This document shows, piece by piece, positions 53,119-55,218 of a stretch of DNA of 64,000 bases. The position numbers and the translations under genes were made by a program. Every line of letters begins with the position of its first letter. Position 1 is the stretch's first letter. Source of the DNA: Thermoplasmata archaeon (GTDB lineage: Archaea; Thermoplasmatota; Thermoplasmata; RBG-16-68-12; JAFNFQ01); assembly GCA_041489255.1 (NCBI GenBank), contig JBGPQV010000005.1, forward strand, positions 64,001 through 128,000. The letters are read 5' to 3'. The notes under the pieces are model-generated. The model ran no database searches, had not been told where the DNA came from, and saw only the letters and a list, made by a program, of their open reading frames with translations.

Positions 53119-54084
53119 TCACAGGTAGAGGTCTCTCCTGATGCGCGGCAGGAAGGCGGTGAAGATGGCAATCTTCGTGATCTCCTCGCGGTCGAGCCGC
53201 CCGTGGCTGAGGTATCCTATGGCGCCCTGCTTCGACCCCATGCCCTTGATGCCGGTGATACGCTCCATGGCCTGACCCACTGTCATCCCCTTCTCGACGA
53301 GCGAGACGACCGCAGGGGGGTAAGCGAAGCCTGGGCCGTGGCCGACCGTCAGCCGCCCCGCCTTGTCCACTACCGCGCAGTACTGCACATCCAGGTGATC
53401 TCTGATTGATTCGTTCCAGAACAGGCCCGCCTCGATCCCGACGCCGAAATCACCGCCACCGAGCGCTCTCCTCGCCCTGTTGATCGCGCCGAGCACGACG
53501 TCCTGTTCGAGCGGCTCCGGTGGCACCCCGCTCTCGACCGACACGCCGCGCACCTTGACCTTGGAATACAATTTCGAGGCGACCGTCCTGACAGCGCTCA
53601 CCTTCAGTCGGTTGTTCGTGCCGACGTTGATGACAAGAGTCCTCAACATTCGCCCTGTCCGACCGACTTCCTTCGCCCTGATCCGCGTCGAAGAGATCGG
53701 GATGCAATCCTCTGCAAGGACCATCGGGACCGGGAGGAGGTCCAATGGCGGGAACCCTCGCATCGCGCGCTCCTCGTTGACCCGCACCGCCACCGCCCTT
53801 TTCTCGGCGGAGACGACGAGTGCATCGAGCTCCTCGCTGACTGCAGGCCCGAGTTCATCGTCGATTCGCACGATCTCGAATCCTTTCGCGCCCTTGCGGC
53901 GGAGATAGGATTCCAGGTTGCGTTTCCTCAACGCATACGGCGAGACTCTCTTTCTAGTGCGCCTTGCCATCTCGTCGCTCGTGAGCCCGACCAGCAGCTT
54001 CCCGCCAGTGTCGATTGCTTTCTTCAGCAGTGCTTCATGGCCGGCGTGGAGGATGTCGAACGTCCCGCCGACCGCCACCCTCAC
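53119..54084 (-). CDS. coaD: Bifunctional phosphopantetheine adenylyltransferase / inosine-xanthosine triphosphatase
   Basis: GTG 54084; VGGTFDILHAGH...ISSTRIR, then YjjX-like GTNNRLKV..V, SGVP, GVGIEAGL, GAIGYLS. Confidence 0.9.
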   Translation of the reverse strand: MRVAVGGTFDILHAGHEALLKKAIDTGGKLLVGLTSDEMARRTRKRVSPYALRKRNLESYLRRKGAKGFEIVRIDDELGPAVSEELDALVVSAEKRAVAVRVNEERAMRGFPPLDLLPVPMVLAEDCIPISSTRIRAKEVGRTGRMLRTLVINVGTNNRLKVSAVRTVASKLYSKVKVRGVSVESGVPPEPLEQDVVLGAINRARRALGGGDFGVGIEAGLFWNESIRDHLDVQYCAVVDKAGRLTVGHGPGFAYPPAVVSLVEKGMTVGQAMERITGIKGMGSKQGAIGYLSHGRLDREEITKIAIFTAFLPRIRRDLYL

Positions 54085-54287: not shown

Positions 54288-54363
54288 GATGTCGCATGGG
54301 AGCGGGATATAAAGAGGTTGGCGGCGGGACCGTTCGAGGCGGGGCGGCAACGATCGGACCGAC

Positions 54364-54831
54364 TTGTGGATACTTATCCACAACCGCCCGCTGCCGCCTC
54401 AGGGAGCGGAGGCATTCATCTTCATCACTGCTAACCTCCTATCCACCTCCTTCTTGATCGAAGAGTAGTGGGCGGTCAACGACTCCAACGCCCGTCTCCT
54501 CGTTCTATCGGCACCTGCGGGCCCCAGGTACCGCCATCTCCTCCTGCTGTATCCGTTCTCTCGCGTGTACGACCAGAGGTAGACATACCGCCTTCCGTTG
54601 ACCCTCCGGACCTCGAGGCCGCATCCGATCTCCATGTGGATACTTATCCACAAACCCGGCTTGAACGGCATTGCGGGGGAGGGGCGAAAGTGACCTCGCC
54701 CGCTCGGGGGGAAGTGAGCTGACTTGTGGAACTTATCCACAAGTCCCGAAAGCGGCCTCTCCCCGGCCGTGGCGGCTTGCGACCGGAGCGGCGTTTGCAG
54801 GATTTGTCGAGTTGTGGATACTTGTCCACAA
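54364..54831. repeat. Four palindromic TGTGGATA-CT-TATCCACA (DnaA-box-like) sites
   Basis: 54364-83 TTGTGGATACTTATCCACAA; 54635-52 TGTGGATACTTATCCACA; 54721-45 GACTTGTGGAACTTATCCACAAGTC; 54812-31 TTGTGGATACTTGTCCACAA. Confidence 0.95.
54399..54635 (-). CDS. Small basic putative DNA-binding protein (78 aa; 3-stranded beta-sheet + helix)
   Basis: MEIGCGLEVRRVNGRRYVYLWSYTRENGYSRRRWRYLGP... carries the G..YvY...w.YlG pattern of archaeal D-335-like/DUF6788-like small proteins; fills the gap between repeats 1 and 2. Confidence 0.72.
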   Translation of the reverse strand: MEIGCGLEVRRVNGRRYVYLWSYTRENGYSRRRWRYLGPAGADRTRRRALESLTAHYSSIKKEVDRRLAVMKMNASAP

Positions 54832-54954: not shown

Positions 54955-55218
54955 ATGAAGAAGCTAGGTGTCGTGGACAACCTCTCCTACGACGGCTCGA
55001 TACTCGTGCGGGCCGAGTTCGCCCCGGGCAGGGGCGCGCAGGTTCTTGACGCAAAGAAGAACCCGGTCGGCAAGATTTTCAAGGTGTTCGGCCCGGTCAG
55101 GAGGCCTTTCGCTGCGGTGAGACCGAGCAGGAAGGTGTCGCTGAGCCTCATCGGTTCCGAGGTCTATCTCGAAGAGGGAGAACATGCCGAAAAACCCAAG
55201 AAAGGTCGAAGAAGCTGA
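54955..55218 (+). CDS. gar1: H/ACA RNP component Gar1
   Basis: MKKLG.V...[18 protein letters not shown]; conserved position upstream of tfb. Confidence 0.85.

Follow-up and report, generated by a model that had tools for sequence, protein, structure and literature searches.

Several kinds of gene are known that are tied to DNA sites of their own. RAYT (TnpA-REP) proteins are HUH/Y1 enzymes of ~150-300 amino acids (aa) whose gene is present as a single copy while the REP palindromes occur in hundreds. The IS200/IS605 elements, of ~0.7 kb or more, carry hairpin-forming palindromes near both ends, show neither terminal inverted repeats nor visible target duplication and encode a Y1 transposase, and the ParR-parC and archaeal AspA/SegB systems combine a small basic protein with an array of its own sites over the promoter. 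A gene that invites comparison with all of these lies in the 64,000-nucleotide (nt) stretch studied here and referred to throughout as the window (positions 64,001 to 128,000 of contig JBGPQV010000005.1 from a Thermoplasmata archaeon, assembly GCA_041489255.1). It encodes a protein of 78 aa and is flanked by copies of a 22-base palindrome, TGTGGATAAGTATCCACA. In this gene and its homologs the palindromes accompany the gene, vary in step with it and are conserved in sequence; gene and palindromes together make up a sharply bounded unit, and relatives have empty sites. From these observations we infer binding, dimerisation, self-repression and the mode by which the unit spreads, and the reading that we favour, and regard as fairly probable, is that the protein is a small, sequence-specific, probably dimeric binder of its own palindromes that would repress its own gene and is carried on a duplicative unit.

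The likeness to RAYT-REP systems lies in the bracketing of one gene by clade-specific palindromes, the coexistence of several such pairs in a genome and the presence of extra palindromes elsewhere. However, the proteins are of only 75-83 aa and lack the HUH motif, the gene is multi-copy (1-11), the palindromes number 2-14 per genome and they hold one spacer orientation at both ends. With IS200/IS605 the family appears to share a very small unit that has hairpin-forming palindromes near both ends and the same lack of terminal inverted repeats and visible target duplication, but the unit is of 0.32-0.51 kb, has no Y1 transposase and holds its left palindrome 40 nt or more inside the boundary. 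There was no Pfam match to an HUH/Y1 transposase, and HxH is absent from an alignment of 30 members. In contrast to ParR-parC and AspA/SegB there is no partner ATPase gene, the units are chromosomal, multi-copy and dispersed, and the protein family is a different one; among the neighbours of the units no recurrent integrase, transposase or partition ATPase was found. Literature searches found neither the family nor the gene-palindrome layout described. The family is uncatalogued and resembles the known modules of a gene plus its cognate site, but its protein is new and very small and its multi-copy, self-bracketed architecture is unusual. The features of the window on which the argument turns are as follows.

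54399..54635, minus strand: gene of the 78-aa protein including the stop codon, with ATG at 54635-54633 and TGA at 54401-54399.
54634..54653, no strand assigned: promoter-proximal palindrome, TTGTGGATAAGTATCCACAT in gene-strand orientation; the ATG begins (54635) on the final base of its core.
54364..54383, no strand assigned: downstream palindrome, 15 nt (54384-54398) past the stop codon, with its spacer oriented as in the upstream copy.
54724..54743, no strand assigned: third palindrome, 89 nt upstream of the promoter-proximal copy, its left arm one base shorter.
54811..54831, no strand assigned: fourth palindrome, reading TGTGGACAAGTATCCACA on the gene strand, at the upstream edge of the duplicated unit.
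54660..54692, minus strand: conserved non-coding stretch, CACTTTCGCCCCTCCCCCGC...GTTCAAG, upstream of the promoter-proximal palindrome.
54322..54831, minus strand: the whole duplicated and inserted unit, comprising three upstream palindromes, the gene, and the downstream palindrome plus about 40 nt.

Exact copies of an 18-base palindrome, TGTGGATACTTATCCACA, lie at 54365-54382 and 54635-54652, and a copy that differs at one base lies at 54813-54830; its strand matches number six against 0.01 expected, and six was reached in none of 100 shuffles. A CRISPR array was considered and rejected, as the repeats are palindromic and go with a single gene, and the 70-nt intervals are mutually related. 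The 78-codon frame starts MEIGCGLEVRRVNGRRYVYLW..., whereas a program-made list of open reading frames (ORFs) had taken a GTG further up, at 54740, which gives 113 aa; the start position M-x-[IVL]-G-C-G is common to all 30 aligned homologs. A preliminary description of the window had placed this ORF between two repeats, had noted its Arg/Tyr/Trp-rich composition and had given it a terminal amphipathic helix, and every point of that description is present in the sequence: the gene runs from the last core base of one palindrome to just short of another, the composition is that of the translation, and hydrophobic positions spaced 3-4 apart over residues 49-75 are legible in the alignment averages, from which the C-terminal ~30 residues are predicted to form an amphipathic, coiled-coil-like helix. 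In the same averages hydrophobic positions alternate from residue 1 to residue 12, in an N-terminal half that is predicted to be beta-rich, and the invariant residues are G4, C5, G6, Y17, Y19, W21, Y23 and G38. A run of the protein as a two-copy complex scored 0.19 against a mark of 0.42, which gives no weight for or against dimerisation. The ORF is a real gene under purifying selection, with a ratio of nonsynonymous to synonymous substitution (dN/dS) of 0-0.35 across 11 close pairs and of 0.16-0.19 between the window gene and its closest copies.

The association of gene and palindrome was assessed at 96 distinct loci, from which duplicates (L001-L003), an interrupted gene (L011 and L012) and identical sequences had been left out. 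With 8-nt arms, the best palindrome ending near the ATG was perfect at 81 of the 96 and had one mismatch at a further 10, whereas perfect palindromes were found at only 4/163 starts of neighbouring ORFs and 9/480 random positions in the same loci. The preliminary description had supposed a cognate pair of protein and palindrome, and the flanks of the homologs, compared with a background of 2-3% at the controls, bear this out. The same palindrome is repeated at the stop codon (from 30 nt before to 100 nt after its end) in 72 of 90 evaluable loci, at a distance from the upstream copy of 255-307 nt (median 262), and the largest clade has this copy lying across the final codons, with the TAG stop as part of it. 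Extra upstream copies are present at 10 loci, the window among them. All share a plan of 9-nt arms around a 4-nt asymmetric spacer, GTT[AG]NNNN[TC]-N4-[AG]NNNN[TC]AAC, in which the inner core is variable. A test for strand bias of G-T versus A-C mismatches in the imperfect palindromes drew mostly on one clade and carries no weight.

The variation of that inner core is the second line of evidence. The window's genome holds three copies of the gene: a paralog 94% identical to the window protein, on contig C8, keeps TGTGGA(T/C)AAGTATCCACA in five copies, and one of 45% identity, on C1, has GTTATACCTACTTAGGTATAAC in the same layout. Different palindrome types can thus be present side by side in one genome. 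On a protein tree of 90 rows (6 of the 96 were left out because the palindrome was poor or the protein of unusual length) the 12 half-site core types require 11 changes, the minimum possible, against 21-23 for shuffled labels. Thus palindrome type follows protein clade, also within one genome, as a cognate pair would have it. Two clades that have the core ACCTCT in common, and occur in the same genomes, differ in spacer (ACTT as opposed to AAAC or GAAC) and at position 2. In a clade of 51 proteins the upstream sites have ACCTCT in 51/51 and the ACTT spacer in 50/51, and per-site diversity is 0.002 in the 18-nt core, against which fourfold-degenerate sites stand at 0.62 and the DNA outside the unit at 0.70. 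Since the core lacks the compensatory drift that is open to a purely structural hairpin, a trans-acting factor that reads the sequence is implied, and the unit encodes a single candidate for it.

These figures bear directly on the proposal that the palindromes act in RNA, as 5' and 3' stem-loops of the messenger RNA that serve stability, termination or occlusion of the ribosome-binding site in cis, or translational feedback when bound by the protein. The positions directly before the ATG and at the stop codon would suit such a role, as would the maintained orientation of the loop and, in the largest clade, a right arm (AGAGGTAT) that ends 4 nt before the ATG and contains a Shine-Dalgarno-like GAGGT that could pair with the left arm. 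However, a pure structural hairpin would drift, and the core is invariant within clades, with no compensatory changes, where fourfold sites are saturated; there are also further copies 90-290 nt upstream of the gene and orphan copies far from any family gene, the palindrome of the window ends on the ATG and leaves no room for a leader, and no Rfam family was found in the region. A role in RNA is therefore considered quite improbable.

The gene and its palindromes behave as one discrete unit. The copies in the window and on C8 align over 514 bases at 88.5% identity between unrelated flanks, the alignment reaching from the outermost palindrome that both have to 60 nt beyond the downstream palindrome, and both positions are occupied in the sister species (G001), which has six family matches. 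Five copies in one metagenome-assembled genome (MAG) likewise have unrelated flanks; they show 90-95% identity between -65/-71 and +251/+260 and stop exactly at the end of the downstream palindrome. Unit size is 0.32 kb in one clade and 0.51 kb in the window, where the left boundary lies 180 nt beyond the upstream palindrome, compared with ~40 nt or more in general. Neither target duplication nor terminal inverted repeat was seen in the seven copies compared. The site in the window lies between the genes for DUF2116 and Gar1. Where the window has 668 bp, this spacer measures 156-176 bp in 11 of the 12 relatives listed and 155-161 bp in three more relatives judged by coordinates. The empty-site relatives belong to four other families of the order and have the PPAT-DUF2116 and Gar1-TFB pairs back to back, and no family gene was detectable at their DUF2116-Gar1 site. 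Because the spacers of relatives are short and have no family gene, the unit of the window is taken to be an insertion of ~510 bp between the divergent promoters of DUF2116 and Gar1-TFB. The remaining relative of the 12 (L145, genome G292) has a spacer of 431 bp without family gene or matching palindrome, and on account of that absence something else would seem to have been inserted at the same spot. The preliminary description had also offered a minimal gene cassette bounded by recombination sites with a 2-bp core, of which a discrete, duplicated and inserted unit has stood, but not the boundaries, as the left one lies ~40 nt or more past the upstream palindrome, nor the core, as the spacer is of 4 nt.

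There are also what appear to be decay products of the unit. At C14:33992 in the window's genome a solo palindrome has both flanks like the outer flanks of the 45% unit on C1, and this is the product that would be expected from recombination between flanking palindromes. At C1:379538, 2.7 kb from the intact unit, a second palindrome is accompanied by only the first ~15 codons of the family gene. In the sister species a gene of the GTTATACC type (L011; contig C23, about 1501-2700) is interrupted after ~codon 23 by ~0.96 kb without any obvious long ORF, after which it resumes in frame-equivalent sequence and continues to its downstream palindrome; it is a disrupted copy of the family. Palindromes of the commonest type number 2-14 per genome in five genomes, and in one genome other than the window's 8 of the 14 lie more than 800 bp from any family gene; crude ORF calling around these orphans, in GC-rich DNA, did not distinguish the 5' from the 3' side of genes. 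An orphan copy of the window palindrome with one mismatch, at C28:14073, lies ~130 nt upstream of an ORF and is a possible extra target of the 78-aa protein. That ORF starts like a small Ras/Rab-type GTPase (MALVGDSGVGKTS...).

It is these properties of the unit that give rise to the main rival explanation, in which the protein belongs to a mobile element with hairpin ends, similar to IS200/IS605 or RAYT-REP but with a different protein; single-stranded hairpins would mark its ends and be bound by the small protein, unaided or together with a host enzyme, so that the unit is mobilised, and any regulation would be secondary. The sharp bounds of the unit, with a right edge that is the end of the downstream palindrome, the lack of target duplication and of terminal inverted repeats, the solo palindromes with unit flanks and the insertion relative to empty sites are all as such an element would have them. 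In 69/72 loci the conserved 4-nt loop points the same way at the two ends, and the predicted single-stranded hairpins have free energies of -5.1 to -10.2 kcal/mol (-5.4 kcal/mol for the promoter-proximal palindrome of the window and -10.2 kcal/mol for the third). The invariant Tyr and Cys residues, and a remote similarity to an integrase N-terminus that is considered below, may be added. On the other hand, a protein of 75-83 aa matches no catalytic family and has no HxH in the 30-member alignment; the left boundary falls ~40 nt (180 nt in the window) past the upstream palindrome; upstream arrays of 3-4 further palindromes would be unexpected for the ends of an element; many units occupy positions that are syntenic across species, which implies that movement is rare; and 2-14 palindromes per genome are unlike REPs. 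Because the protein has no known catalytic motif this explanation has been kept as a rival and is not favoured; we hold it to be unlikely.

A further question is raised by a resemblance to replication origins. The palindrome of the window contains TTATCCACA, which we take to be the DnaA-box consensus of E. coli, and the preliminary description had proposed that the protein had converged on that sequence. For this part there is no support, as TTATCCACA occurs in this palindrome type only and is absent from the other eleven half-site types, and the resemblance is best read as a coincidence. The wider proposal, that the palindromes are a replication origin (of the origin recognition box (ORB) or DnaA-box type) or operators of an unlinked host regulator, with the gene as a passenger, can draw on that sequence, on an Orc1/Cdc6 gene (the nearest, identified by a Cdc6_C match) 20 kb away on the same contig and on a DnaA-type AAA+ protein encoded in the genome. 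Nevertheless, the ORB consensus reported for the Methanomassiliicoccales, GTTCCAGTGGAAATGG-AGGGGT (PMC4153887), is unrelated to the palindrome. There are also up to 11 units per genome, the palindrome types coexist beside their own protein clades, so that an unlinked factor would have to diversify in step, and the unit is an insertion missing from relatives. DnaA domain IV (PF08299) had no match at E<=1 in the window's genome, which is 96.5% complete, and the DnaA-like protein ends in a different domain. An origin or a host operator is accordingly thought very improbable. The AAA+ protein itself is the product of a 705-aa frame of native GC content at C3:27998-30112 with a bacterial-type DnaA AAA+ domain (PF00308, E 5.4e-65) and a tail that is not domain IV, and from its sequence is classed as an archaeal DnaA-like ATPase.

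The origin of the protein itself has been approached through comparison with the N-terminal 52-72 codons of eight fusellovirus integrases from a phage collection. In pairwise hhalign comparison, which is not a database search, the broad family profile aligned to these integrase N-termini with a probability of 94.3% (E 1e-7) over 33 columns corresponding to residues 7-42 of the window protein, and the narrow family profile with 74.7%; the shared motif is G-x-x-Y-[VLI]-Y-...-Y-...-Y-[VLI]-G-P. Three distant members reach 13-15 bits against PF07935 (SSV1_ORF_D-335), for which the cut-off is 22, and the window protein and the 30 aligned members have no match to it. Two distant members have sub-threshold matches to arm-type domains, the best to PF17293 (Arm-DNA-bind_5, E 0.011, 16.7 versus 22.6 bits). 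The arm-type domains of the lambda, Tn916 and P4-type integrases, and AP2 domains, would be alike in having a short beta-rich domain followed by a helix, a sequence rich in Arg, Tyr and Trp and repeated sites near the gene, but the PF17293 threshold is not reached and that model has no match in the window's genome. The AP2- or integrase-arm-like binder of the preliminary description therefore receives slight encouragement from the hhalign result and the Arm-DNA-bind_5 match, and none from any Pfam threshold. Common ancestry of the beta-rich motif with the N-terminus of SSV-type integrases is a lead suggested by sequence, not a membership. In contrast to SSV-type integrases the family is stand-alone, has a coiled-coil-like tail and lacks a catalytic domain.

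An SSV-type integrase gene is split when the element integrates, and it might be asked whether the ORF is simply the int(N) fragment left behind, since it resembles the first ~45 residues of these integrases and in SSV1 the attachment site follows closely on that part of the gene. We find this scarcely credible. The 30 aligned members are complete frames that close with a conserved C-terminal helix and a stop codon of their own, and the gene is under purifying selection; the family profile finds three short genes and no longer matching form in the window's genome, no recombinase-sized fusion occurs among the best 148 representatives, and the tyrosine recombinase genes are on other contigs or far from the units. 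A bolder possibility is that the units represent a new class of minimal autonomous archaeal mobile element, of ~320 bp, whose sole product, a 75-83-aa relative of the SSV-integrase N-terminus, would recognise the clade-specific palindromic or hairpin ends of its element and drive copying into intergenic DNA or recruit a host enzyme for it. This is regarded as rather unlikely. If true, it would be the smallest self-encoding mobile element known, and the N-terminal region of SSV-type integrases, which is poorly understood, would be credited with the reading of sequence.

The reading that we favour, self-repression by a palindrome-binding protein, may be set out as follows. The 78-aa protein would read the 22-bp palindrome, probably in dimeric form with the C-terminal helix holding the two copies together. 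The upstream palindrome would act as an operator over the transcription start, downstream of a promoter-like stretch, and because this copy lies on or just before the start codon and downstream of that stretch, binding there would repress transcription of the gene. An operator over the transcription start is the usual position for archaeal repressors. Further copies, at the stop codon and in the array upstream, might tighten repression through cooperative binding or looping, or insulate flanking host promoters. The unit would be copied into intergenic DNA between unrelated housekeeping genes and would decay into interrupted genes and solo palindromes; how it spreads is suggested by its boundaries and by the empty sites. 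The candidate promoter region is the stretch at 54660-54692, which is common to clades with different palindromes and takes the form ATTCGC-CACC...GGTTCA in the large clades. The motif is GC-rich; in some clades the matching stretch is CACTTTCGCCC-CTCCCCCG, and the opposite strand of the motif is GGGGGAGGTG, which resembles a strong Shine-Dalgarno sequence.

A number of observations weigh against this reading. The best upstream palindrome has two mismatches in 5 of the 96 loci and the downstream copy was undetected in 18 of the 90. In 69 of the 72 loci with both, the copies have the same spacer orientation, which a symmetric dimer on duplex DNA would not require, and the asymmetric conserved spacer, the right boundary at the palindrome end and the stable hairpins together suit a hairpin-end element more than a simple operator. 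The loci are related by descent, many of them as orthologs, and 67 of the 90 tree rows have one and the same half-site core, so that the counts exaggerate how independent the loci are, and linkage by itself would bring palindrome type into line with the tree. The class used for the diversity figures was first picked by left arm and spacer, a choice that the count by protein clade repairs only partly. Upstream of the gene there is no AT-rich TATA box of the kind found at the neighbouring DUF2116 and Gar1 promoters, and the promoter assignment is weak for that reason. The window protein has no match in Pfam, NCBIfam or PHROGs, and all members scanned fall below thresholds. The Pfam models PF07935 (at E<=10), PF17293 and PF20586 match nothing in the window's genome, and membership of the PF07935 type is not claimed on that account. 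Three AT-rich metagenomic loci of distant relatives (L155, L157 and L158), which count on the other side, have (G)TTATACC...GGTATAA(C) palindromes 37-91 nt upstream, an observation made without a chance-palindrome control. Lastly, reading DNA may not be what the part homologous to integrase N-termini does: a review (PMC8371274) reports binding of target DNA by each half of IntSSV1, and control of multimerisation by the N-terminal extremity of IntSSV2.

The family was found in 22 of 301 sampled genomes of the class, all of one order of Thermoplasmata, with 1-11 matches each; within that order it is found in 1/1 genomes of family f1, 3/7 of f2, 1/5 of f3 and 16/17 of f5. A profile search of 1.84 billion representative proteins gave 148 at E<=1e-3, and members are short, stand-alone proteins of 75-87 aa. 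The distant members have no GCG start, and one of them is a 'hypothetical protein' of Nitrosopumilus MAGs; the metagenomic relatives are 37-51% identical to the distant query. A profile made from distant members alone recovers the three genes of the window's genome at E 5.6e-11 to 4.8e-9, and for this reason the distant relationship is taken to be real. A scan of metagenomes queried with the Nitrosopumilus member found no relative, none of 52 pattern matches on viral contigs was a relative, and a tblastn search of the phage collection gave no match to a distant member. In the Protein Data Bank (PDB) a sequence search with the narrow profile found nothing and one with the broad profile gave weak coiled-coil matches to the C-terminal part (best E 0.031, the rest E 0.3-10). 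The ESM Atlas returned unnamed Thermoplasmatota clusters and a weak DUF6788 lead (0.84 in two queries), and the DUF6788 model has no match in the window's genome.

The genes that surround the units are unrelated housekeeping genes. In the window the neighbour on one side is the DUF2116 zinc-ribbon gene, itself preceded by a fusion gene for a phosphopantetheine-adenylyltransferase (PPAT)-like protein and an NTPase, and on the other side lies the Gar1-TFB pair. The fusion is a single frame at 53119-54084 with a cytidylyltransferase-like (PPAT-type) domain and an NTPase_I-T (DUF84) domain, and its position beside DUF2116 is kept in relatives. The Gar1 frame (54955-55218) overlaps the start of TFB (55184) by 35 nt, and their pairing is kept across the order. 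Other units are found next to genes for CDP-archaeol synthase, a KaiC-like ATPase, thiolase, DNA ligase, FtsX, EamA, MoaE, pyruvate oxidoreductase, HflX and ribosomal protein S7.

If self-repression by a palindrome-binding protein holds, uncultured Thermoplasmata of soils and sediments carry an uncatalogued group of very small DNA binders, with at least a dozen protein-site pairs and several of them per genome. They would be natural orthogonal protein-DNA pairs of fewer than 85 residues and 22-bp sites, in which the evolution of specificity could be followed, and possibly a source of compact orthogonal regulators. As duplicative elements, too, the units are candidates for a new and extremely small archaeal kind, and their link with the SSV-type integrase N-terminus yields a testable idea of what that region reads. 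The unit in the window, situated between the promoters of the zinc-ribbon gene and of Gar1-TFB, may affect the expression of a general transcription factor.

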